From the IMG/VR virus record IMGVR_UViG_2541047698_000018: 42,267 bases of DNA, one strand, 5' to 3'. Below, piece by piece: positions 1,419 to 38,772 of the stretch. How positions within the stretch are numbered: position 1 is the stretch's first letter; each line of letters begins with the position of its first letter. Source of the DNA: a virus (lineage: Duplodnaviria > Heunggongvirae > Uroviricota > Caudoviricetes). Under the pieces are notes generated by a model. The model had not been told where the DNA came from and did not search any database. It saw only the letters and a program-made list of their open reading frames with translations. The position numbers and the translations under genes are program-made.

Positions 1419-1733
1419 CTAGAAAATCTTCATAAGGGGGAGAAATCCCCCACCTGTAATAACATCACTACTAAAATTAACACCTTGTTCGCACAACTCC
1501 TCCACCAGCACGACAAGATGCCGCACACTGCGCCCCAGCCGATCCAGCTTCCAGACAACCAGAGTGTCACCTGCCGATAATGTCCTGAGCAGTTTTTTCA
1601 GTCCCGGCCTTTCGGACTTTGTACCGCTTATCTTGTCTTCAAAAATCAGCTCGCATCCTGCACAGTTCAACGCATTACGTTGTAGATCGGTATTCTGGTC
1701 ATTTGTTGATACGCGTACATAGCCAATAAGCAT
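1419..1733 (-). pseudogene. pin: DNA invertase (Pin/Gin/Hin serine recombinase), 3'-truncated
   Basis: MLIGYVRVSTNDQNTDLQRN...LVVWKLDRLGRS matches Pin/Gin N-terminus including catalytic Ser motif; similarity ends near residue 88, ORF stops at about 105 aa vs about 185 aa expected; C-terminal DNA-binding domain absent. Confidence 0.75.
1436..1451. other. GC hairpin (ggggga-gaaa-tccccc) at cargo/invertase junction
   Basis: 6-bp G/C stem with GAAA loop 22 nt after the cargo stop; coincides with the point where invertase homology is lost. Confidence 0.4.
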
Positions 1734-6235: not shown

Positions 6236-6987
6236 CAGTTTACCCCGTCGGTACTGCTTCCACCGCGCTGAACACCGCCATGAGTGTGCGTATCATCGAT
6301 TGGCTTGCCGTTAGCCTTCACGCTACCCAAAAACTCAACAGCACCAGTGATTTTTGAAGCCACACCAGAAACAACAGACCCCACCATGCCCCCCATCCAG
6401 GTTAACAGGCCATGAATGGTTACTTTCTCAGAAAAATCAGCCAGAGGGGCAACCACATCAAGACCACCCGGGGCGACAATTTTAATTTTCCGGGTATCAG
6501 GATTAAGATCAAAATAGGTGCTGCCGTCGTCACTACGCAACTGTGTGGCACTGGTATTAATACCGCTAATCTTCCTCGCCTGCGACTGGGGACCGACAAT
6601 ACAAAACGCATCCGATAAATCATGCATTCTGTCATCGACCGGCTCCTGTATCCCACCGCTCTGCCACCAGAAATCAATACAACGATCGGCAAAAACGACA
6701 AGACACTCATCCCCGGCTTTAACCGGAAAAGTCAACGTACAGCCTCCGCCGCGCGGAAATACCACAGGCACATCCACCAGCAACGGGTAATTTTTGGTAA
6801 TGCGGTTACCGTCGTTATCCTTTTCAACCGAACGGATAGCTGGCTGCACAACCGCCGTCACCGCGTCGGGATCGAATGACTGAACAATGCCAGGCAAGGC
6901 GACACGGATCTGGTTCTTTGTTGTTTCCCGTTCAGATTTGAATGTTTCGGCAAGGTCGCCGCTGCGGGTCTGGTCAGATACTGCCAT
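6235..6987 (-). CDS. Baseplate spike/assembly protein (V-like)
   Basis: 250 aa, Gly-rich C-terminus; position matches Mu gp45. Confidence 0.5.
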   Translation of the reverse strand: MAVSDQTRSGDLAETFKSERETTKNQIRVALPGIVQSFDPDAVTAVVQPAIRSVEKDNDGNRITKNYPLLVDVPVVFPRGGGCTLTFPVKAGDECLVVFADRCIDFWWQSGGIQEPVDDRMHDLSDAFCIVGPQSQARKISGINTSATQLRSDDGSTYFDLNPDTRKIKIVAPGGLDVVAPLADFSEKVTIHGLLTWMGGMVGSVVSGVASKITGAVEFLGSVKANGKPIDDTHTHGGVQRGGSSTDGVN

Positions 6988-7004
6988 TTAGTAGGCTCCA
7001 GAAA

Positions 7005-7028
7005 GCAAAAAACCCGCCGGGTGGCGGG
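7005..7028 (-). terminator. Rho-independent terminator after membrane-protein moron
   Basis: Stem cccgcc-gggt-ggcggg followed by a U-run on the minus-strand transcript; 19 nt downstream of 7047 stop. Confidence 0.6.
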
Positions 7029-7046
7029 TTCATTATTGAAGTTTCA

Positions 7047-7286
7047 TTACTGCTTGTTTGCTTCTAACGCTTCAGCTATTCGGCGAAGATACTCATTGTT
7101 TTTAAATGAAACCATGATGCACTCAAAGAATATTCGGCAAAATACAGCACATAACAAAAGCACTAAAGCGCCAGCAGCCTTCCCATTAACAAACGTTATA
7201 ATGGCGGCAACAACCAGAAGTAACATTGTGATGCCATACAGAACGTTGATGATTTTTGGAGTTATTAATTTATCAAATCCGAACAT
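7047..7286 (-). CDS. Small inner-membrane protein (moron)
   Basis: 79 aa, two hydrophobic helices; AT-rich; own terminator; inserted between baseplate hub and spike genes. Confidence 0.5.
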   Translation of the reverse strand: MFGFDKLITPKIINVLYGITMLLLVVAAIITFVNGKAAGALVLLLCAVFCRIFFECIMVSFKNNEYLRRIAEALEANKQ

Positions 7287-7339
7287 GCGACAAATTCCTT
7301 ATCGTGAAAGTAGAAGTATCACATTATAATTACGAGTGA

Positions 7340-7681
7340 TTAATCAACAATCTTTTTGCATGGAAAGGAACCGATGATTTTCGGCGCATCCATGCTGTTC
7401 TGCAGCAGTTGGACATTCAGGAATCGCGTTTCGGTACCAGGGCGACGAATGTATTCAAAGCCGTAGTTGTTACCGTCTTTGGCAGGCATAAGCCCCATGT
7501 CTACTTTCAAACCATTGGTACCCAGTTCGGTGATTTTTTGAGAGGTAACTCTTTCACCGTTGATTGTCGATAACTCGCCCTGGTTTGCAACCATAGTGTA
7601 GCCACCGCATTTAACCGTGAAGCCATCCGCCCACGCGCTGCACGCAGAAAAGACAGCTAACAGAAAAATAATACCCCTCAT
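7340..7681 (-). CDS. Secreted/periplasmic protein with signal peptide (moron)
   Basis: 113 aa; N-terminal MRGIIFLLAVFSACSAWA signal-like segment; two Cys (positions 25 and 109). Confidence 0.5.
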   Translation of the reverse strand: MRGIIFLLAVFSACSAWADGFTVKCGGYTMVANQGELSTINGERVTSQKITELGTNGLKVDMGLMPAKDGNNYGFEYIRRPGTETRFLNVQLLQNSMDAPKIIGSFPCKKIVD

Positions 7682-9051: not shown

Positions 9052-9638
9052 TATCCGCCTCCCAGTAATGACTCCACGTTACCCGTGATGCTTTTCAGCA
9101 GTGAAGTATCTGGAGGCTTTGTGGTTTTGTTGCCGCTATTCTGTACCGCCGACGTGCTGACCCCTTCCTTCATGTTGGTTTTATCCGCGACGGTAATCTG
9201 CTGTGTCCGGGAGATAAGGACCTCCCTCAGGGTGAGGACGGCGGACAGGACGTTTTCGGTTGTCTTGTCCGTCGTCACTTCCAGCGCCCGGATCAACATG
9301 TTGCTGTACAGTCGTTTACCGGTTACCACATCGAAGGGGATACGGCTTTCCTGCAGATCCAGTAGCTCCTGATACGTCTGCTGAGGACTCAGGCCGAGCA
9401 GGCTGGTAGCCGTCAGATTACTGGCAAAATCCAGCAATGCGCCGCCACCGGCGAAACCAACCTCCATCACCACTTCTGACGGTTTTTTATAGGCATGATC
9501 AGCGACAGCGGCCCCAACCTCTACCGGATGCTCTGTTATTTCAAGCATATCTGTATGCTTCTCTGAAATAACAACACTGGGAACAATCATTCCTATTTTT
9601 CTGCTCTGCTGATGAAAAAGTGTAGAGAGAATATCCAC
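9051..9638 (-). CDS. Tail protein (DNA-circulation/gp43-like position)
   Basis: 195 aa directly after tape measure gene. Confidence 0.4.
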   Translation of the reverse strand: MDILSTLFHQQSRKIGMIVPSVVISEKHTDMLEITEHPVEVGAAVADHAYKKPSEVVMEVGFAGGGALLDFASNLTATSLLGLSPQQTYQELLDLQESRIPFDVVTGKRLYSNMLIRALEVTTDKTTENVLSAVLTLREVLISRTQQITVADKTNMKEGVSTSAVQNSGNKTTKPPDTSLLKSITGNVESLLGGG

Positions 9639-11626
9639 TAACCCACCCTCACCTGATTACTTCGCATGACCTGAGCATTTGCAGACTGTTGCCGACGTGC
9701 AACCTCATTACCGACAGCGTGCGGATCTCCGCCACCGTAAATGTGGTAGGTATTTTGCTGGTTAACCTCTGTCACTTTGCCACTAATTCCCGCCACGGCA
9801 GCCTTATTAATCAGCTCTCGGGAATAGATATTTCTTCCATTCTCATGCTGGATAATGCTGCTCATCAATGCTGACATGGTTTGCAGATCGCTCATATTCA
9901 GGGCAGCCCGGGGATCCACTCCCAGTCGTTGCGATACAGCATTGATATACGCAGTTGTGTTGTTATTATCAGAGGCAGGTGCCCAGGTAGAGATAATTTT
10001 TTCCACACTGTTTATTCCTCGCCCGGCGTACAACATTAACTGACGAGCAAGAGCCCGTAATCCATCAAAGGCAGTTTCAAATCTGGCAAATCGCCCGCCC
10101 GGGTGTTCAAGAGAAGCCCCCGCCTGACCAGCAAAATTAAGGTTTCCCGGATTGTTATTCCGCTCTCCTCGTTTCGTAGCCTGTGCATGTTGTTCCGGCT
10201 CATCATCACCAAACCAGCCGCGTACCGTCCGGCCCACACTGCGGGGATCGAATCCCCAGTGCTCTTTAATCCAGTCGGCAGTACTGTTAGCGCTGTCTGT
10301 AACCATCGGCATCGCTGACGGATTTTCGCTGCCCTGATTAAGTATCTGTTTGCCGATGCTGACGGCATCAGCCCAGCGTCCATCTTTGATAGCGTTGAGC
10401 AGGTCGGCGATCATGTTCAGCATTTTGCTGAATTCGCCCATCTGGTCGATGAAGTTGCTGAAATCCCACTTCAGGGACCATGATTTGGGGTCAATATTGA
10501 GTAGTTTCGCCAGCGCTTTCGCCAGGTCGTTAACGGTCGTTTTAAGGTCACGAACCATCTTCAGCGCGGCATCGACCTCCGGTTTCCACTTGCCCCAGTC
10601 AATCAGGCTGTCGCCGCCTTCCTTCCAGGTCTGATAGTCCTCCCACAGGAGGGCAATCCCCGCCGCCAGCGCGGTAATGAGGCCAACCGGCGACATCCAG
10701 AACGTACTGTTCAGAATGCGCAGCGCAATCGTCAGTGCGCCAAACAGCGAGATCAACTCCCGCGTTTGCTTATCCAGCGATTGCCACCAGGTGATAAGGC
10801 CTGATGTCCCCTCAATCAGTCTGAAGAACAGCCGCCCGATAATATCCCCGAGCGCCAGAATGCCTTTTATGGCTTTCGTCAGGGTCTGCTCGATACGAGG
10901 GAAGTTGTCCAGGATATGGCGGCGCAGGGTGTCCAGCGAACCTGCAAGCCCACCCGCAAGATTAGAGCCGATTTTGTCACGGGCCATGCCTGCCATCGCG
11001 CTAAACTCACGCAGGGAGGTCATAAATTTGTTGGAGCTTCTGGCCGCCTCGTCAGCATTGAAGCCGATAGCTTTCGCCATTGCGCTGTACTGCCCGGAGA
11101 AGCCACCCACACCCCGGCGCATCGCCATAAGGGTATTTTCGTCAATGCCCAGCATCTGCGCATACTGGTTAGCCCGGTAATACGGCATGCCGCTGAGCTT
11201 CTGGCCTACACCTGTAAAAATAGCGGCCATGTCACGCATGTTACCGCTGGCATCCCGTGTCTGTACCCCCAGACGATTCAGAAATCCCTCAGCCCCGGGG
11301 TTATTACGGATAAACCGGGAGAGGCTTTCCAGAGAAGATTGCGCAGCGTCCACGCTGCCGCCAACCTGCGAAACCGCATAGCCAATAGACTGAATTCCCT
11401 GGGCTGTCGCGCCGGTGCGCTGTGACGCCCAGTAAAGATTATCCAGGCCGGAGGCGATCTTAGCCGTGAAGGCCACCACGGACAGCGCAGCTCCTTCAAC
11501 AGCCAGCCCCATTTTGATGACATTTGCAGTTGTACCGGCGAGGACAGAACCGAACTTTTTCGCTCCTGCATCATCCACACTGAAGCCAAGCGAGACGAGG
11601 AAATCTTTAATAGTTTCAGCGTTCAT
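9638..11626 (-). CDS. Tail tape measure protein
   Basis: About 660 aa, Ala/Gly-rich with hydrophobic central segment; follows chaperone; start MNAETIKDF at 11626 preceded by GAGAGG. Confidence 0.75.
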   Translation of the reverse strand: MNAETIKDFLVSLGFSVDDAGAKKFGSVLAGTTANVIKMGLAVEGAALSVVAFTAKIASGLDNLYWASQRTGATAQGIQSIGYAVSQVGGSVDAAQSSLESLSRFIRNNPGAEGFLNRLGVQTRDASGNMRDMAAIFTGVGQKLSGMPYYRANQYAQMLGIDENTLMAMRRGVGGFSGQYSAMAKAIGFNADEAARSSNKFMTSLREFSAMAGMARDKIGSNLAGGLAGSLDTLRRHILDNFPRIEQTLTKAIKGILALGDIIGRLFFRLIEGTSGLITWWQSLDKQTRELISLFGALTIALRILNSTFWMSPVGLITALAAGIALLWEDYQTWKEGGDSLIDWGKWKPEVDAALKMVRDLKTTVNDLAKALAKLLNIDPKSWSLKWDFSNFIDQMGEFSKMLNMIADLLNAIKDGRWADAVSIGKQILNQGSENPSAMPMVTDSANSTADWIKEHWGFDPRSVGRTVRGWFGDDEPEQHAQATKRGERNNNPGNLNFAGQAGASLEHPGGRFARFETAFDGLRALARQLMLYAGRGINSVEKIISTWAPASDNNNTTAYINAVSQRLGVDPRAALNMSDLQTMSALMSSIIQHENGRNIYSRELINKAAVAGISGKVTEVNQQNTYHIYGGGDPHAVGNEVARRQQSANAQVMRSNQVRVG

Positions 11627-11649
11627 TATCCTCTCTCCATTTCTCAATG

Positions 11650-11803
11650 CGCCGCTGGTTATCCGCTTTTACCGCCAGATGGTCATTCAAGATAGCAATG
11701 TCATACAAATCGACAGAGCCATCTTTAAGTGCTGTATAGGGAATTAACCCGGCGTCAACCGGATTGAGAAGGTAGGACAGCCCGTCCGGCAGGCTGTTAA
11801 ACG
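11650..11803 (-). other. Putative -1 frameshift extension of tail assembly chaperone
   Basis: About 52 sense codons in the -1 frame fill the gap between chaperone stop and tape-measure start, ending ATGAACGCTGA overlapping that start. Confidence 0.35.
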
Positions 11804-33592: not shown

Positions 33593-34222
33593 TCACTCAG
33601 GAATCTTAATCTTTCTCAATTCTTTATTTAGTTCACAGATCTTTTTCTTAGACGGGAAAGTATCATACATCCAAAAACCAACAGTCTCTAAAACTATTAT
33701 CATAACCATATACACAAGATAATTTAAAAGGCCTTCATTTTGCCCTATGGAAATAATGCAGATAATAGAAAAAAGGGTAAACAGCACAAAACACAGAAAG
33801 GAAAACAGACGACTAACAATAAATAAAAAACCTGAAAAATCAACATTAATAAAAAACACTCCGTTATCTTTCTCTATATAATTCTGAAGCTTAATCAACT
33901 GATTTATATACTGTCTTTTTTCTAATCTATTGCAAATGTAAATAACATCTCTTCGGTTATAAGAGGATTGCAATTTCAGCGCATCACGAATAATTTTATC
34001 ATTTATTCTTTTTTCTATGGCACTCTTATCCTCCTCATCCAGATAACGTTCATACTTAACTAAATATAAAATTAACTTCTTGACATATTTAGGCTCTTTA
34101 TACTTATAATTAAAAATGATCTTTCTTATCCAGACTCCCATAACAATCAAACATGAAAAAATATATCCAGCTATTTTCTCCAGATGCTCTGTATGGTCAA
34201 TCAAGTATTGGATCATATGCAT
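33593..34222 (-). CDS. AT-rich multi-pass membrane protein (moron, opposite strand)
   Basis: 209 aa; Lys/Ile/Tyr-rich; N-terminal and C-terminal hydrophobic helices; antisense to replication operon. Confidence 0.5.
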   Translation of the reverse strand: MHMIQYLIDHTEHLEKIAGYIFSCLIVMGVWIRKIIFNYKYKEPKYVKKLILYLVKYERYLDEEDKSAIEKRINDKIIRDALKLQSSYNRRDVIYICNRLEKRQYINQLIKLQNYIEKDNGVFFINVDFSGFLFIVSRLFSFLCFVLFTLFSIICIISIGQNEGLLNYLVYMVMIIVLETVGFWMYDTFPSKKKICELNKELRKIKIPE

Positions 34223-34268: not shown

Positions 34269-36332
34269 ATGTCCAATATACTATGGGGCGACCTGGAAAC
34301 CTATTGCGAAATCCCTATTACGAACGGTACCCATGCGTATGCCGAAGGCGTTGAAGTGATGCTTTTCGCATGGGCTATCAACGACGGGCCAGTAAACGTG
34401 TGGGATATCACTGCCGGTGGTGGTATTCCACACGGCTTATACGAAGCAATCGCAGACCCTGAAACCCTGCTTTATTTCCATAACTCTCACTTCGACCGCA
34501 CCGTTCTGCGTTATGCAATGCCGCGCCTGGCACCGCCAGTCGAACGTTGGCGCGACACAATGGTGCAGGCGCTGGCGCACGGTCTCCCGGGGTCTCTGGG
34601 GGAACTCTGCGAAGTACTAGGCGTCCCGCAAGACAAAGCGAAGGACAAAGAAGGTAAAGCGCTGATCCAGCTGTTCTGTAAGCCACGCCCGAAAAACAGC
34701 AAACTGCGCCGGGCCACCAGCAAAACCCACCCGGAAGAATGGCGGCGCTTTGTTGCTTACGCCGGACTGGATATCGAGGCAATGCGCGAAGTCTATAAAC
34801 GTCTGCCGAAGTGGAATTATCAGGGGACAGAACTGGCGCTCTGGCATCGTGATCAGCAGATCAATGACCGGGGCGTCTGCATGGACGTGGAACTCGCACG
34901 CGCTGCGATCGACGCGGTAGACCAGGAACAAAAGCGCCTGGCAAAGCGTACACAGGAAATGACTGATGGCGAAGTGCAGGCAGCCACACAACGAGACGCG
35001 TTGATTAAGCACATTGTTGAATCCTACGGTGTGGAGCTACCAGACATGCAACGCAGTACTCTGGAACGTCGTATTGCCGACCCCGATTTACCATCTGCCG
35101 TGAAAGAACTGCTGGCTATCCGCCTGCAGGCCAGTACTACCAGCACCAGTAAATACAAGGCACTGATGAAAGGCGTAAGCCACGACGGGCGCTTACGCGG
35201 TACGCTACAGTTCTGCGGGGCGTCACGTACCGGTCGTTGGGCCGGACGGCTATTCCAGCCCCAGAACCTTCCCCGCCCTTCACTAAAACAGGAACAAATA
35301 GACGAAAGCATCGAAGCACTGAAAGCCGGATGTGCAGACCTGCTGTTTGACAATATCATGGAACTAACCAGTTCAGCGTTACGTGGCTGCATTATCGCGC
35401 CAACAGGCAAAAAGCTGGTGGTAAGTGACTTGTCGAACATTGAAGGCCGTATGCTGGCATGGCTGGCGGGAGAAGAATGGAAACTGAATGCATTCAGAGA
35501 GTACGACGCCGGAACGGGTCCGGACTTATATAAACTGGCGTATGCAAAAGCTTTCGATATTGCACCAGATGATGTTGATAAACACATGCGTCAGATCGGT
35601 AAAGTCATGGAACTCGGTCTGGGTTATGGTGGTGGTGTGTCGGCCTTCATCACTTTTGCACTGGTTTACGGTCTCGATCTCGACGAGCTGGCGAACGCCG
35701 CACTACCAAACATTCCCCGCGATGTTATCCGCGAGGCGAAAAGCTGGTACGACGAATCGGTTAAACGCAAGTCAACCTACGGGCTTTCTGAACGGGTATT
35801 TATCGCCTGCGACTCACTTAAACGTCTCTGGCGCCGGGCGCATCCCGCGACCTGTGATTTCTGGTACGAACTGGAGCGCACCGTCCGCACTGCAATCGCC
35901 ACACCGCAAAAAACATTGTATTGCGGTTATCTTAAAATCCGCCGCGATGGCGCGTGGCTGCGCATACAGCTACCATCCGGACGCGCTGTATGCTACCCGT
36001 CTCCGGTTATCGAAAAAGGGAATATCACCTACATGGGGGTTAACTCTTATTCGCGTAAATGGCAACGACTCAAAACCTACGGCGGAAAGCTGGTGGAGAA
36101 CATCACCCAGGCGGCCGCCCGCGACATTCTGGCCGGAAACATGCCGCTTATCGAAGATGCCGGTTACAGCATTGTGCTGACGGTACACGACGAGGTGATC
36201 ACCGAAGCACCTGACACAGAAGATTTCAACGATAAAGCGCTTTCCGCGCTTCTCTCCACTGACCCCGAATGGGCGCCCGATATCCCACTGAACGCTGGCG
36301 GTTTTGAGGCGTACCACTACAAAAAAGATTGA
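34269..36332 (+). CDS. DNA polymerase, family A, with 3'-5' exonuclease
   Basis: 687 aa; exo motif DLETY; motif [18 protein letters not shown]; motif [17 protein letters not shown]; motif C VHDEV. Confidence 0.85.
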
Positions 36333-36396
36333 TATAACTCACCTTATCGAGCTATGGCGACATGCTGAATTCGAGTAAATTAAAGGAACAATACTT

Positions 36397-37158
36397 ATGC
36401 AGGAACTAACTGAAATGCCGATCACCTATCCATACCCGAGAGAATCTTTTCCTGACTTTTTGAGGGAGTGTGGGTTCACCAATTTTTCCCACGAACAGCG
36501 TGAGACTTGTGACTGCTATCGTTTAACGAATGGCGTAATTGTTAACCTTTACACCACCCGGACCATTCAGTTTCAAGGTAACCCTCAAGAACGTCCCAAT
36601 GTTGAAACTGCAATAATGACCCATTTAGGAACGCCGCCCACGGCAACACCACTAGCCGTAGAACAGCCATCTGAGCTCCCCAAAAAGATATTCATTGTTC
36701 ACGGCCATGACCATACTGCAAAGGAGCAACTTGAGCTAATCCTTCATAAACTTGGATTACCAGACCATTTCATTTTGCAGAATACGGGAGGGACTGGACT
36801 CACCATTATTGAAGAGCTTGAACGTGAAATTGGGCAAGGACAAACTGCTACCCGTTTCGGGATTGTTCTTTTGACACCTGATGATATGGGATACTCAAAG
36901 CGCGCCGGTGAAGCAGAAATCCAACCCCGCGCAAGACAGAACGTTGTACTCGAGATGGGTATGCTTCTTTCGTCCTTAGGGCGCAGCAATGTAGCAATCC
37001 TTCAGAAACAGCACCTAGAACAGCCTTCTGATGCTAACGGGATTTTGTATCTGAATTTCAACGACCATGTACGTGAAACAGTTCCTCGTCTAGTGCAACG
37101 GTTACAAAATTCTGGTTTCGAATTTACACAAGCTCAAATAGCTAACGCTTCCTCGTAA
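36397..37158 (+). CDS. TIR-like (COG4271/PF10137-type) nucleotide-binding domain protein with unknown N-terminal domain
   Basis: 253 aa; KKIFIVHGHD, VLLTPDD, ARQNVVLEMGMLLSSLGR resemble the TIR-like family as recalled. Confidence 0.5.
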   Translation: MQELTEMPITYPYPRESFPDFLRECGFTNFSHEQRETCDCYRLTNGVIVNLYTTRTIQFQGNPQERPNVETAIMTHLGTPPTATPLAVEQPSELPKKIFIVHGHDHTAKEQLELILHKLGLPDHFILQNTGGTGLTIIEELEREIGQGQTATRFGIVLLTPDDMGYSKRAGEAEIQPRARQNVVLEMGMLLSSLGRSNVAILQKQHLEQPSDANGILYLNFNDHVRETVPRLVQRLQNSGFEFTQAQIANASS

Positions 37159-37181
37159 TTACCCCTTATTGTTGATTACAA

Positions 37182-37202
37182 CCCTGCATCGCGGGGTTTT
37201 TT
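37182..37202 (+). terminator. Terminator after TIR-like gene
   Basis: ccctgc-atc-gcgggg followed by tttttt. Confidence 0.5.
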
Positions 37203-37392
37203 ATTTGGGAATAAAAAACCTATGTCATTTAAATACCGGGACAGTCCGCTTTATTACCGGACTGTGCGGGAGGCTTTGCACCTTGAACAGTCCGGCGGGT
37301 ACGACCGGGCGATGCAGGTCTGGGCCAAAGCGAACGTCGGTTTGATTTTTGTCTGATGCAGAACATGCGCGAAAAGCGTAAGGAGGTGGACG

Positions 37393-37587
37393 ATGTCTAA
37401 TATCGATAATAAGGGTTGGGGGTTCCCCGCTCTGTCAAAAAAAGCACATTTCTTTAATTCGGGGGAAGCCATATCACTATGCGGAAAATGGATGTTCATA
37501 GGTATCAGGATTGATGAATGGCATGACCATCCTGAGAACTGCGCTATCTGCATGAAGAAACGCAAAAAGCAGGAAGGCGAAAGCTAA
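37393..37587 (+). CDS. Small Cys/His-rich protein
   Basis: 64 aa; C...H-x-H...C-x2-C; stop overlaps VRR-NUC start. Confidence 0.35.
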   Translation: MSNIDNKGWGFPALSKKAHFFNSGEAISLCGKWMFIGIRIDEWHDHPENCAICMKKRKKQEGES

Positions 37588-37856
37588 TGGCCTATGAACG
37601 TGAAAACCTAATCGAAAAGCACCTCGTCGCTGAAGTGAAAAAAGCTGGCGGGGTTGCCTTTAAGTTCGTATCTCCCGGTCGCCGCTCGGTACCAGATCGC
37701 ATTGTTCTGCTACCCGGCGGTCGCATCGTCTTTGTCGAATGCAAAGCACCAAGCAAACCTCCACGACCTGATCAGTTGCGCGAACATGAACGACTGCGCG
37801 CACTGGGCTTTAGCGTGGTGGTACTAGATAGCAAAAATCTAGAGAGGATATTGTAG
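37587..37856 (+). CDS. VRR-NUC domain nuclease
   Basis: 89 aa; PDRIVLL...IVFVECKAP matches VRR-NUC D...ExK core. Confidence 0.7.
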   Translation: MAYERENLIEKHLVAEVKKAGGVAFKFVSPGRRSVPDRIVLLPGGRIVFVECKAPSKPPRPDQLREHERLRALGFSVVVLDSKNLERIL

Positions 37857-37885: not shown

Positions 37886-38146
37886 TTAGGGTTTTTTAGG
37901 GGGAGGAGCTACAGGACGAGTTTGTGACGGAGGCTGGTAACCATCACGCTTCTCTGACTCTAACGAACTTGGGCATTGCTGCATAGTTATAGGTGAACTA
38001 AAAAAGCCCATACTTCCATTATTTTGTGGTTGGTAACCATTGATAGCAAGACGTTCATTAGAAACTTTTGGTTGATACCCTTCCATAATTGCTTGATAGT
38101 TATTTACGTCCAATGCGTCATTACTCATCTTTTTATTAATAGTCAA
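37886..38146 (-). CDS. Small protein with three GYQP repeats and Pro-rich tail
   Basis: 86 aa; EGYQPK, NGYQPQ, DGYQPP; second gene of AT-rich minus-strand cassette. Confidence 0.4.
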   Translation of the reverse strand: MTINKKMSNDALDVNNYQAIMEGYQPKVSNERLAINGYQPQNNGSMGFFSSPITMQQCPSSLESEKRDGYQPPSQTRPVAPPPKKP

Positions 38147-38169
38147 TTTATACCACCTTTATTTTTAAC

Positions 38170-38772
38170 TTAAATTGAATAAAACTCTACGGTAAGAACA
38201 TCTGTAGTCAGAACCAACACACCTAAAGTTCGTTCTTTAGGTCTATCAAACCCACCGTCATCATTGATGTGCCAACTTTCAATCAAATAAATTTGCTCAG
38301 GTTCTGGGCTGCTTGAGGCAAAGGCATTACCTGCGTACAGCCCCCCTATTTTTTTACCATCTTTTAGGGTGATAATAACCCAACAAGCAGGAGCATTCCT
38401 GAAGAAAAAATCCCATGGACGCCCCACTGGATGCGGCAATTTATTTCTAAAAAACTGCGATTCTCTTAATTTATACAGAGCTACAGGAAGCAACGATGGA
38501 GATATAAAAAACGCTAAGAAGTACATTAGATAATATAAAAACAATGAATAATCAAATAAGTTATTCCGCTCTGCGAAATAAATCGGGAAAAACCAAATAG
38601 CATAATTAATGCAGCTATAAGCAACAGCATCAATAATTATTTTGGATGACTCTTTTTTAACCGAAGGATGAAGTGCTTCGTACACTTTTATACTAATAAA
38701 TCCAGGAACCACAAAAATAATAAAAATAAATAGTTTATCAAAGCTCCAAATATCCATACTTCTCTCCACCAT
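38170..38772 (-). CDS. AT-rich membrane protein with C-terminal soluble domain
   Basis: 200 aa; about 3 hydrophobic helices in the first 110 aa; opposite strand to flanking replication genes. Confidence 0.5.
   Translation of the reverse strand: MVERSMDIWSFDKLFIFIIFVVPGFISIKVYEALHPSVKKESSKIIIDAVAYSCINYAIWFFPIYFAERNNLFDYSLFLYYLMYFLAFFISPSLLPVALYKLRESQFFRNKLPHPVGRPWDFFFRNAPACWVIITLKDGKKIGGLYAGNAFASSSPEPEQIYLIESWHINDDGGFDRPKERTLGVLVLTTDVLTVEFYSI

Follow-up and report, generated by a model that had tools for sequence, protein, structure and literature searches.

A TIR-encoding gene, optional cargo of an E. coli prophage, most likely serves in anti-phage defence

The locus

The window, by which we mean the whole 42,267-nucleotide stretch of DNA that was analysed, belongs to a temperate phage integrated beside yfhL in its host, E. 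coli. Sharing the orientation of its early replication genes is a real gene for a TIR-domain protein (Table 1), a complete and ATG-started ORF of 253 aa (WP_001157067.1) that begins 64 nt downstream of the co-directional DNA polymerase gene. An earlier interpretation of these letters (hereafter the sequence-only reading) had placed it between the polymerase and VRR-NUC genes, which is correct, with an ANR-family pseudogene and a 64-aa ORF intervening on the VRR-NUC side. The gene had been annotated as TIR-domain-containing before and its family is already a PADLOC candidate, which makes the bare finding an ordinary one.

The gene is the single ORF of a cassette of ~885 bp that consists of a leader, the ORF and a conserved terminator. 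The boundary of this cassette was set by alignment to the empty site of E. coli O103:H2 12009, in which the ATG of the ANR gene lies 5 nt past the polymerase stop codon, and the insertion is exact (polymerase stop codon, cassette, ANR start codon). The left junction shows in the last 12 nt of the polymerase gene, which differ from those of cassette-less prophages. The cassette has a GC content of 45-47%, versus 54-59% in the flanks. Polymorphic presence at a precise site, deviant GC and a terminator of its own make this cassette moron-type cargo.

The leader contains weak, sub-threshold promoter-like elements, and a promoter search found no consensus sigma-70 promoter in the leader of either of the two alleles described below. 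Elements of the form xTGxxx, TAxxTT and GGA keep their position across diverged cassettes. As for the terminator that the gene had been credited with, it stands, although not on single-sequence statistics. Since the fold of the single sequence is not significant (dG -14.5 kcal/mol, z -1.9; the hairpin alone is at chance level, with 1 found versus 1.4 expected from shuffles), comparative evidence was needed, and this comes from a position that is conserved across diverged cassettes and from compensatory changes in six of the ten stem pairs. This terminator closes the cassette, ~14 nt short of the start codon of the ANR gene (37222/37223), and insulates the TIR gene from the downstream replication genes.

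Table 1. Features of the TIR cassette and its flanks (positions in the window)
Feature	Position	Strand	Remarks
DNA polymerase gene	34269..36332	+	upstream flank of the cassette
Cassette leader	36333..36396	+	64 nt; Shine-Dalgarno AAGGAA at 36383-36388
Promoter-like elements in leader	36354-36359; 36376-36381		ATGGCG; TAAATT; weak, sub-threshold, promoter function putative
PDC-S35-type protein	36397..37158	+	TBP-like domain / linker / TIR domain
N-terminal TBP-like domain	36418..36630	+	aa 8-78; beta-alpha-beta4-alpha; putative sensor/regulatory module
Linker	36631..36684	+	aa 79-96; disordered, Ala/Pro/Ser/Thr-rich
TIR domain, CAP12/Pycsar type, with C-terminal helical extension	36685..37155	+	aa 97-253; predicted NADase effector
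E186 codon	36952..36954	+	predicted catalytic glutamate, in R180-x-N182-x-x-x-E186 motif
D212 codon	37030-37032	+	predicted to complete the active site of the neighbouring subunit
Intrinsic terminator	37180..37208	+	hairpin 37180-37198 (8-bp stem, 3-nt loop), T-run
ANR-family regulator	37222..37400	+	downstream flank; frameshifted pseudogene, ~40 nt deleted
VRR-NUC gene	37587-37856		downstream of the TIR gene

The TIR domain and its predicted active site

A TIR-like identity had been proposed from a handful of motifs, all of which are present in the protein (F99-IVHGHD105, L158-LTPDD163 and A179-RQNVVLEMG188, the last followed by L194-GR196), and these three motifs correspond to invariant columns in an alignment of the 52-sequence family. 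Profile and structure searches bear this identity out. The Pfam HMM for the CAP12/Pycsar TIR family (PF10137) matches aa 97-222 over positions 1-118 of its 119 with a score of 108.4 bits (E=2.9e-31), the curated gathering threshold being 24.7 bits. The top Foldseek matches to the predicted structure, the TIR part of which is modelled with moderate confidence (pLDDT 50-84), are the TIR-STING structures 9lmq/9lmr (E=3.8e-5, probability 1.0); PdTIR, SPARTA TIR-APAZ, SARM1 and BtpA come next, so that the fold is the flavodoxin-like one of TIR domains. Neither the HMM nor the structure searches pointed clearly to an ordinary accessory protein of replication.

Upon alignment to 7un8, residues R180, N182, E186 and D212 fall on R78, N80, E84 and D110 of SfSTING, for which roles in NAD contact, in catalysis and as a trans-acting Asp have been described (PMC9402430), and they are invariant or near-invariant across the 52 homologues. 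The catalytic glutamate on helix alphaC, the NAD-contacting Arg/Asn and the trans-acting Asp all have their counterparts in the prophage protein. Conservation of the R-x-N-x-x-x-E motif together with the trans-acting Asp suggests a putative NADase that is activated by oligomerisation, and the encoded TIR-type enzyme is predicted to destroy NAD+.

As judged from sequence divergence, purifying selection on the TIR domain is strong: dN is 0.096, with synonymous sites saturated, and the mean pairwise identity is 73%. Owing to this saturation (pS is about 0.74 between the two alleles), dN/dS ratios are unreliable and the contrast in dN alone was used.

The N-terminal domain

What precedes the TIR domain had been described as an unrecognised Cys-containing domain of ~100 aa. 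It is indeed a separate domain, but a smaller one, its folded part covering ~70 aa (residues 8-78) before a disordered linker of ~17 aa (pLDDT <50 for residues 80-94), which is 8-31 aa long in the family. Nor are its cysteines (C25, C38 and C40) conserved in the family, which rules out a metal-binding Cys-containing domain; the residues that are invariant there are G46, Q60 and G61.

The domain can be named as a TBP-like one of the type known from RNase HIII-N and RnlA. It matches the TBP-like alpha/beta fold (helix, four-stranded antiparallel sheet, helix) and resembles the repeated domain of the anti-phage toxins RnlA/LsoA. The corresponding Pfam family (PF15935) scores WP_001157067.1 at 15.9 bits versus a cut-off of 27, and it matches 10 of 29 family members (best E=8.9e-5), while DUF3378 matches four of the 29. 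In a profile search, RNase HIII came up at E=0.02 and LsoA at E=0.026. The same domain also replaces the N-terminus in variants of dCTP-deaminase defence proteins: P0206, which matches PADLOC dCTPase at E=7e-173, starts with it, as do P0159 and P0221 (PDC-S35 profile positions 3-79).

This domain evolves ~5x faster than the TIR domain and appears sensor-like, a putative sensor/regulatory module. It is mildly acidic (net charge -2, family median -1, pI about 6.1), which does not support an analogy with RNase H3, and binding of RNA/DNA hybrids by the N-domain seems doubtful.

Relationship to known systems

The closest relative is the PADLOC candidate system PDC-S35 (PDLC05003-05007), with which the prophage protein shares a single-gene organisation, a two-domain layout and a full-length match (model PDLC05003, E=7.1e-109, residues 10-253 versus profile 3-245 of 245), and from which it shows no structural difference. 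A second E. coli allele matches PDC-S35 equally well. PDC-S35 is a computational candidate only, and sub-models 05004, 05005 and 05007 have the TIR part alone in common, their N-termini being different. Our literature search found neither PDC-S35 nor WP_001157067 mentioned or experimentally tested in any paper, and nothing relevant on prophage TIR defence alongside DUF2815 and VRR-NUC; single-gene systems are left out of the domain-centric discovery paper.

Among solved structures, the best match in both structure and sequence is Cap12/TIR-STING (SfSTING, PDB 7un8, 9lmq), a CBASS NADase effector with a TIR domain of the same PF10137 subfamily. However, the prophage protein has neither a STING domain nor a CD-NTase neighbour, its TIR domain is C-terminal whereas that of SfSTING is N-terminal, and NCBIfam Cap12 equivalog models, whose cut-off is 450 bits, give it 34.8 and 30.5. 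In the Pycsar effector PycTIR (PDB 8jsj) the PF10137 TIR domain is, as here, C-terminal and follows an N-terminal sensor domain (a putative one in the prophage protein). Unlike PycTIR, which it matches weakly (E=1e-8 in PADLOC, E=0.43 in the PDB), the prophage protein lacks a cyclic-nucleotide-binding sensor and an adjacent cyclase. Membership of CBASS or Pycsar is thus ruled out: there is no STING, SAVED or cNMP sensor, the gene is flanked by a DNA polymerase gene and an ANR pseudogene and not by a CD-NTase or pyrimidine cyclase gene, and the Cap12 scores are far below the cut-off. The search for Thoeris was equally negative, with no PF08937 match at E<=1, no PADLOC Thoeris model and no ThsA-type effector gene in the cassette.

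On the side of the N-domain, the TBP-like domains of RNase HIII and of RnlA/LsoA are attached to a different effector (an RNase H or a HEPN RNase, rather than a TIR). The dCTP-deaminase defence proteins (PADLOC dCTPase, PDLC02373) include variants with the same N-domain, likewise single-gene, nucleotide-depleting effectors, in which a cytidine/dCMP-type deaminase takes the place of the TIR.

In concept, the prophage protein has company among single-protein TIR systems. E. coli systems of this kind provide abortive-type defence that needs the TIR active site (Wang et al. 2024, PMC11350192). [quoted passage not shown] A different sort of likeness is offered by BstA, a prophage-encoded abortive-infection protein that occupies the same ecological niche (phage-excluding prophage cargo) but is an unrelated protein with another mechanism.

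Distribution, alleles and cargo slots

The sequence-only reading had also held that the gene is no core replication function, and its distribution agrees. Among 159 genomes that bear the polymerase, 37 have this cassette and 10 a second allele of it (~30%), and the remaining related E. coli prophages (~70%) have an empty site or other cargo. All 37 genomes have an intact TIR ORF, with an identity of at least 99%. The gene is therefore optional cargo in an E. coli prophage and not a replication protein, and is most likely an anti-phage defence gene.

The two alleles, the second of which is exemplified by WP_127762857.1 of ECZP248, occupy one and the same site, with near-identical TIR domains and far more divergent N-domains. 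They are saturated at synonymous sites while the polymerase genes next to them are ~97% identical, which indicates cassette exchange. In sister prophages, the same interval contains DUF4406 (which we take to be a nucleoside 2-deoxyribosyltransferase-like family), methyltransferases and Nmad5, and in the neighbouring slot, between VRR-NUC and the helicase, the prophage of E. coli O103:H2 12009 encodes BstA (PADLOC E=2.5e-110). The replication module of the lineage that integrates at yfhL has three or more variable slots for cargo, and BstA can occupy one of them.

Within a collection of 50,697 sequenced phage genomes the gene is near-absent, the exceptions being three induced prophages of this lineage, and it is absent from the virulent phages. 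Homologues are found in contexts of the defence type: a type I R-M operon has a full-length one (44% identical) lodged between its hsdS and hsdR genes, and others adjoin genes for integrase, Mrr nuclease and PemK toxin, lie on a Vibrio cholerae integrative element or follow gpD in another type of prophage. The neighbouring genes differ in each context examined, and no conserved partner recurs across five unrelated contexts.

What the protein may do

The explanation that we favour, with a probability of roughly 0.65, is that a temperate E. coli phage carries, on a self-contained cassette of the moron type, the gene for a single-protein anti-phage effector of the abortive-infection type. The protein would consist of a fast-evolving TBP-like sensor/regulatory N-domain, a flexible linker and a highly conserved TIR of the Cap12/PycTIR subfamily, and would be expressed from the repressed prophage in an inactive, resting state. 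Recognition of an infection cue via the N-domain would gather the TIR domains into composite active sites, each made of E186, R180 and N182 of one subunit and D212 of its neighbour, and the ensuing hydrolysis of NAD+ would leave the infected cell unable to support phage growth. We propose that the population of lysogens would thereby be protected and, with it, the resident prophage. A lysogen-protective effector is also the best fit among the three options (this one, an anti-defence factor and a nucleotide-metabolism enzyme) that the sequence-only reading had left side by side, in view of the PDC-S35 match, the homologues in an R-M operon and in non-phage islands and the near-absence from virulent phages.

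Several points speak against defence. In the only systematic E. coli test, 20 of 32 TIR clusters were inactive (PMC11350192), and the moderate confidence of the TIR model and the mild acidity of the N-domain count against it too, as does the position of the gene. Its co-orientation with the early replication genes and its want of a consensus promoter make expression in the lysogen putative, and the Pol-TIR-VRR-NUC order, which is retained in phages with a polymerase diverged to 74-78% identity, could suggest a role in the cycle of the phage itself. The protein might then be co-expressed with the early replication genes and serve lytic growth, either as an anti-defence factor that degrades, for instance, nucleotide or NAD-derived immune signals or as an anti-competitor/anti-satellite factor, rather than protect the lysogen. 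We nevertheless regard this as unlikely, because full-length homologues exist outside phages (in the type I R-M operon, next to Mrr/PemK and on the integrative element), the virulent phages of the 50,697-genome collection do not have the gene, ~70% of related prophages do without it, the conserved terminator separates it from the replication genes downstream, and the literature search found no precedent for an anti-defence TIR in this subfamily. The anti-defence option is thus disfavoured relative to that of a lysogen-protective effector.

It is quite improbable that the protein is an enzyme processing nucleotides or nucleosides (N-glycosidase or deoxyribosyltransferase-like, acting on a substrate other than NAD+) in aid of phage DNA replication or modification. 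The company of DUF4406, methyltransferases and Nmad5 in the same interval of sister prophages would suit such an enzyme, as would the fact that nucleotide N-glycosidases such as MilB have a TIR fold too (PMC9402430). However, the Pfam scan at E<=1 yielded, besides PF10137, just a weak RnlA_toxin match, with no deoxyribosyltransferase, LOG or SLOG family among its hits, so a nucleoside deoxyribosyltransferase/SLOG identity is ruled out and the nucleotide-metabolism option has no HMM support. Moreover, the NAD+-binding residues of SfSTING are conserved, and homologues in defence-type contexts have no replication genes nearby.

About as improbable is a signal-producing TIR of the ThsB kind, whose cyclic-ADPR-type messenger would activate an effector from another locus of the host or the prophage. 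TIR domains can be signal synthases, and an N-terminal sensor followed by a TIR is reminiscent of ThsB logic (preprint 10.64898/2025.12.03.692087). Against this, the cassette has one ORF and its homologues no conserved partner gene, the best matches are effector TIRs of PF10137 (Cap12, PycTIR) and not ThsB PF08937, and the survey in that same preprint treats standalone TIRs as probable NAD+-depleting effectors. Finally, that the gene is an inactive or decaying passenger without current function is very unlikely: the neighbouring ANR gene of this prophage is a pseudogene and most TIR clusters in that systematic E. coli test were inactive (20/32; PMC11350192), but here 37 genomes share an intact ORF with an identity of at least 99%, the low dN of the TIR contrasts with saturated synonymous sites, the catalytic residues are invariant and the terminator has been maintained through compensatory changes.

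Implications

Prophages often carry single-gene TIR defence proteins, and the value of adding one more (if such it is) is modest. What the locus offers beyond this lies (i) in its variable slots, one of which holds BstA, making unannotated low-GC slot genes in the window reasonable candidates for new defence genes, and (ii) in the N-domain, which, being shared with dCTP-deaminase defence proteins, gives a concrete handle on how such effectors are switched on.

A bolder and rather doubtful proposal is that the TBP-like N-domain is a transferable infection-sensing module for one shared cue (e.g. a replication/transcription intermediate or a consequence of host shut-off), which would have been coupled to three unrelated suicide effectors, namely the HEPN RNase of RnlA/LsoA, the dCTP deaminase and the predicted TIR NADase. 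If true, this would unify the triggers of three defence systems that have been studied separately. The two natural alleles, which are found at the same site in near-identical phages, amount to a ready-made experiment on trigger specificity and, should the proposal hold, would be a natural specificity-swap pair for finding that cue.

A TIR gene carried as a cassette

The window holds a whole prophage integrated beside yfhL and matches the chromosome of E. coli BCE049 at 100% identity; there, the TIR gene is annotated as a 'TIR domain-containing protein' (WP_001157067.1). The induced phages vB_EcoM-606R2, -689R2 and -611R5 carry the gene at 98.3% DNA identity, labelled 'TIR-like domain-containing protein'. 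As the sequence-only reading had it, this is a real gene between those for the DNA polymerase and VRR-NUC. Its ORF is intact, starts with ATG and encodes 253 aa. On its 3′ side come, in this order, a frameshifted ANR-regulator pseudogene, a 64-aa ORF and VRR-NUC. The ANR gene, which RefSeq also flags as frameshifted, has a ~40-nt deletion relative to the intact copies of O103:H2 12009 and ECZP248.

Alignment with the sister prophage of E. coli O103:H2 12009, in which 5 nt separate the polymerase stop from the ANR start, shows that about 885 bp is inserted in the window exactly between these two points. The inserted unit comprises a 64-nt leader with a Shine–Dalgarno sequence, the TIR ORF and a terminator, its GC content is 45–47% versus 54–59% for the polymerase and helicase genes, and the final four polymerase codons differ between the two prophages. 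That the gene has its own terminator, another early claim, is borne out by a position kept across cassettes encoding 70–78% identical proteins, with compensatory changes in six of ten stem pairs. No consensus sigma-70 promoter was found in the leader of either E. coli allele; the only elements 5′ of the Shine–Dalgarno sequence are weak ones (xTGxxx / TAxxTT) whose positions are conserved.

Among 5,426 complete E. coli genomes, 159 have the polymerase of this prophage lineage, 37 have TIR allele 1 (that of the window) and ten have allele 2 (as in ECZP248), whose DNA is alignable only over the TIR-coding part. Allele 2, which likewise has a leader and a terminator of its own, is found at the site of allele 1, and the two proteins are 71% identical overall, differing mostly in the N-domain and linker (dN is 0.53 for the N-domain and 0.096 for the TIR domain). 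Because synonymous sites are saturated (pS about 0.74) despite polymerase genes that are about 97% identical, the comparison implies that the alleles would have arisen by cassette replacement, not by divergence in place.

The TIR domain

Residues 97–222 match Pfam PF10137 (CAP12/Pycsar effector TIR) with E = 2.9e-31 and 108 bits, the cut-off being 24.7 bits. A sequence search of solved structures returned Cap12 (TIR-STING; 7un8, 9lmq) and, weakly, PycTIR. The best Foldseek match of the AlphaFold model (mean pLDDT 71; 50–84 in the TIR part) is TIR-STING (E = 3.8e-5, probability 1.0), followed by PdTIR, SPARTA TIR-APAZ, SARM1 and BtpA. In the cryo-EM structure of SfSTING, R78 and N80 contact NAD+, E84 is catalytic and D110 from the opposite TIR completes the active site (PMC9402430). 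With the deposited 7un8 chain numbered as in the paper plus 8, these residues align with R180, N182, E186 and D212, respectively, which are all invariant or near-invariant among 52 homologues, so that the domain looks, from its sequence, catalytically competent; as in Cap12, activity probably needs TIR–TIR packing. The TIR-like identity first proposed is thus upheld by profile, fold and active-site residues, and the motifs quoted for it (FIVHGHD, LLTPDD and ARQNVVLEMG..LGR) are all present, as invariant columns of the 52-homologue alignment.

The N-terminal domain as an apparently exchangeable module

In the model, residues 8–78 form a high-confidence fold (pLDDT about 90) in which a strand and a helix are followed by a four-stranded sheet and then another helix, and residues 80–94 are disordered; the linker is Ala/Pro/Ser/Thr-rich and 8–31 aa long across the family. 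The cysteines picked out earlier in this domain are not conserved in the family. By its fold, the domain is taken to be a TBP-like module akin to those of RNase HIII-N and RnlA, which according to comparative work binds DNA–RNA hybrids in RNase HIII and is also fused to RNase LS HEPN domains (PMC3710099). Hybrid binding is not simply to be assumed here, given a mildly acidic domain with a net charge of −2 (family median −1, pI about 6.1).

Mean pairwise identity is 36% for the N-domain versus 73% for the TIR domain, by which measure the former is evolving much faster. In an exhaustive profile search, the module turned up in 867 representatives, most of them fragments of the TIR protein's own family. 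In the metagenomic proteins P0206, P0159 and P0221, it precedes a dCTP-deaminase defence effector, replacing the usual N-terminal ~140 positions of the dCTPase profile (P0206 matches PADLOC dCTPase with E = 7e-173 from profile position 142 on and has a Pfam dCMP_cyt_deam_1 domain), and in P0212, P0174, P0209, P0224, P0230 and P0264 it is joined to C-termini without a known-family match. Other PDC-S35 sub-models have only the TIR part in common with the window's protein. The picture suggested is one of small N-terminal modules swapped among nucleotide-depleting effectors, with this N-domain behaving like a swappable putative sensor.

Distribution of relatives

Relatives in the protein database number about 2,700; most are about 250 aa long, and their sources include Enterobacterales, Vibrio and Halomonadaceae. 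Viral contigs hold 153 relatives. The order PolA–TIR–VRR-NUC is kept in 39 of the 39 viral-contig loci whose TIR protein is at least 64% identical, persisting where PolA is only 74–78% identical; more distant relatives in viral contigs lie elsewhere. Homologues occur (i) in a type I R-M operon ordered hsdM, unknown ORF, hsdS, TIR gene, hsdR (L059; full length, 44% identical), (ii) between gpD and an HTH regulator in a different type of prophage (L060), (iii) with integrase, Mrr nuclease and PemK toxin genes as neighbours and (iv) on an integrative element of Vibrio cholerae that also has a TrwC relaxase. Among 50,697 sequenced phage genomes, the gene is found only in the three induced prophages and one weak Salmonella fragment. 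In plasmids, 1,144 records, of which 615 are from Klebsiella, 366 are from Escherichia and about half are predicted to be conjugative, encode PF10137-type relatives that match in the TIR part only; these relatives have other N-termini and are usually annotated 'nucleotide-binding protein', the full architecture being rare among plasmids.

Variable slots of the prophage lineage

Eight sampled prophages have six different contents between polymerase and VRR-NUC: TIR allele 1, TIR allele 2, ANR + DUF4406, ANR + DUF7446, a reverse-strand GHKL ATPase, or a small ORF + ANR + SAM methyltransferase. DUF4406 is a nucleoside 2-deoxyribosyltransferase-like family, which places a different nucleotide-related fold in the interval of the TIR cassette. 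The GHKL-type ATPase has a weak PADLOC DrmA match.

The contents of the VRR-NUC-to-helicase slot also vary, which therefore makes it another variable cargo slot: O103:H2 12009 has BstA (PADLOC E = 2.5e-110) and a Dcm methylase there, and other prophages have other unknown ORFs. This BstA homologue sits in the yfhL-integrating lineage; an E. coli survey found bstA, in its own dataset, only in lambda-like prophages at hotspot #32 (tRNA-Arg) (PMC10121019). In the DUF2815-to-polymerase slot, sister prophages have an Nmad5-family gene and a different reverse-strand ORF. The window's 209-aa ORF, without a Pfam or PADLOC match and possibly hydrophobic and membrane-associated (its translation judged by eye), is a candidate cargo or defence gene.

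Coordinates of the TIR gene, its neighbours and the contents of other slots
Feature	Locus	Position	Strand	Context
Recombinase pseudogene, truncated	window	1463–1729	−	
Recombinase pseudogene with tail-fibre and tail-fibre-assembly genes	window	1463–3291		Genes in opposite orientations; looks like remnant of Gin/Cin-type invertible host-range switch
209-aa ORF, GC 29%	window	33593–34222	−	Between DUF2815 and polymerase
DNA polymerase	window	34269–36332		Directly before TIR gene
TIR gene	window	36397–37158	+	
ANR pseudogene	window	37222–37400	+	
DUF6338 protein (200 aa) and 86-aa ORF, GC 33–39%	window	37886–38772	−	VRR-NUC to helicase
DUF4406 gene	L003 (O103:H2 12009); L014	9282–9581; 6782–7081	+; +	Between ANR and VRR-NUC; no TIR cassette
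BstA homologue	L003 (NC_013353.1)	10853–11782	−	
GHKL-type ATPase (HATPase_c)	L004; L016 (E. coli PS1Thumoskin9 and A4)	9072–10100; 6572–7600	−; −	Replaces TIR cassette and ANR gene
Type I R-M operon	L059	866–9837		

Possible functions

These properties fit a prophage cargo gene for a single-protein abortive-infection effector, in which a sensor or regulatory domain would be joined by a linker to a TIR NADase. Precedents are Cap12 and PycTIR, effectors activated by oligomerisation, and the single-protein TIR systems of E. coli, for which 32 of 64 TIR clusters were tested and 12 were active, the TIR active site is needed for defence and some triggers are portal or tail-fibre proteins (PMC11350192). 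Given its abundance, the cluster of the window's protein may well be among those 32.

The most serious rival, though an unlikely one, is a role in the phage's own lytic cycle, for which speak the gene's co-orientation with early genes, the lack of any clear promoter and the fact that its synteny with the polymerase is long-standing. A nucleotide-metabolism enzyme is less probable still; at E ≤ 1, Pfam gave no deoxyribosyltransferase, SLOG or other TIR family in the protein. A Thoeris-like signal producer is slightly more doubtful again, and that the gene is dead is very improbable.

What is already catalogued is the family (PADLOC PDC-S35; phrog_16442, 'unknown function') and the gene's annotation as a TIR protein. 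What appears to have no earlier description in the searchable literature is (i) the identity of the N-domain, (ii) its apparent sharing with both dCTP-deaminase proteins and RnlA/LsoA and (iii) the multi-slot cargo architecture of the prophage replication module, all of which are incremental advances.
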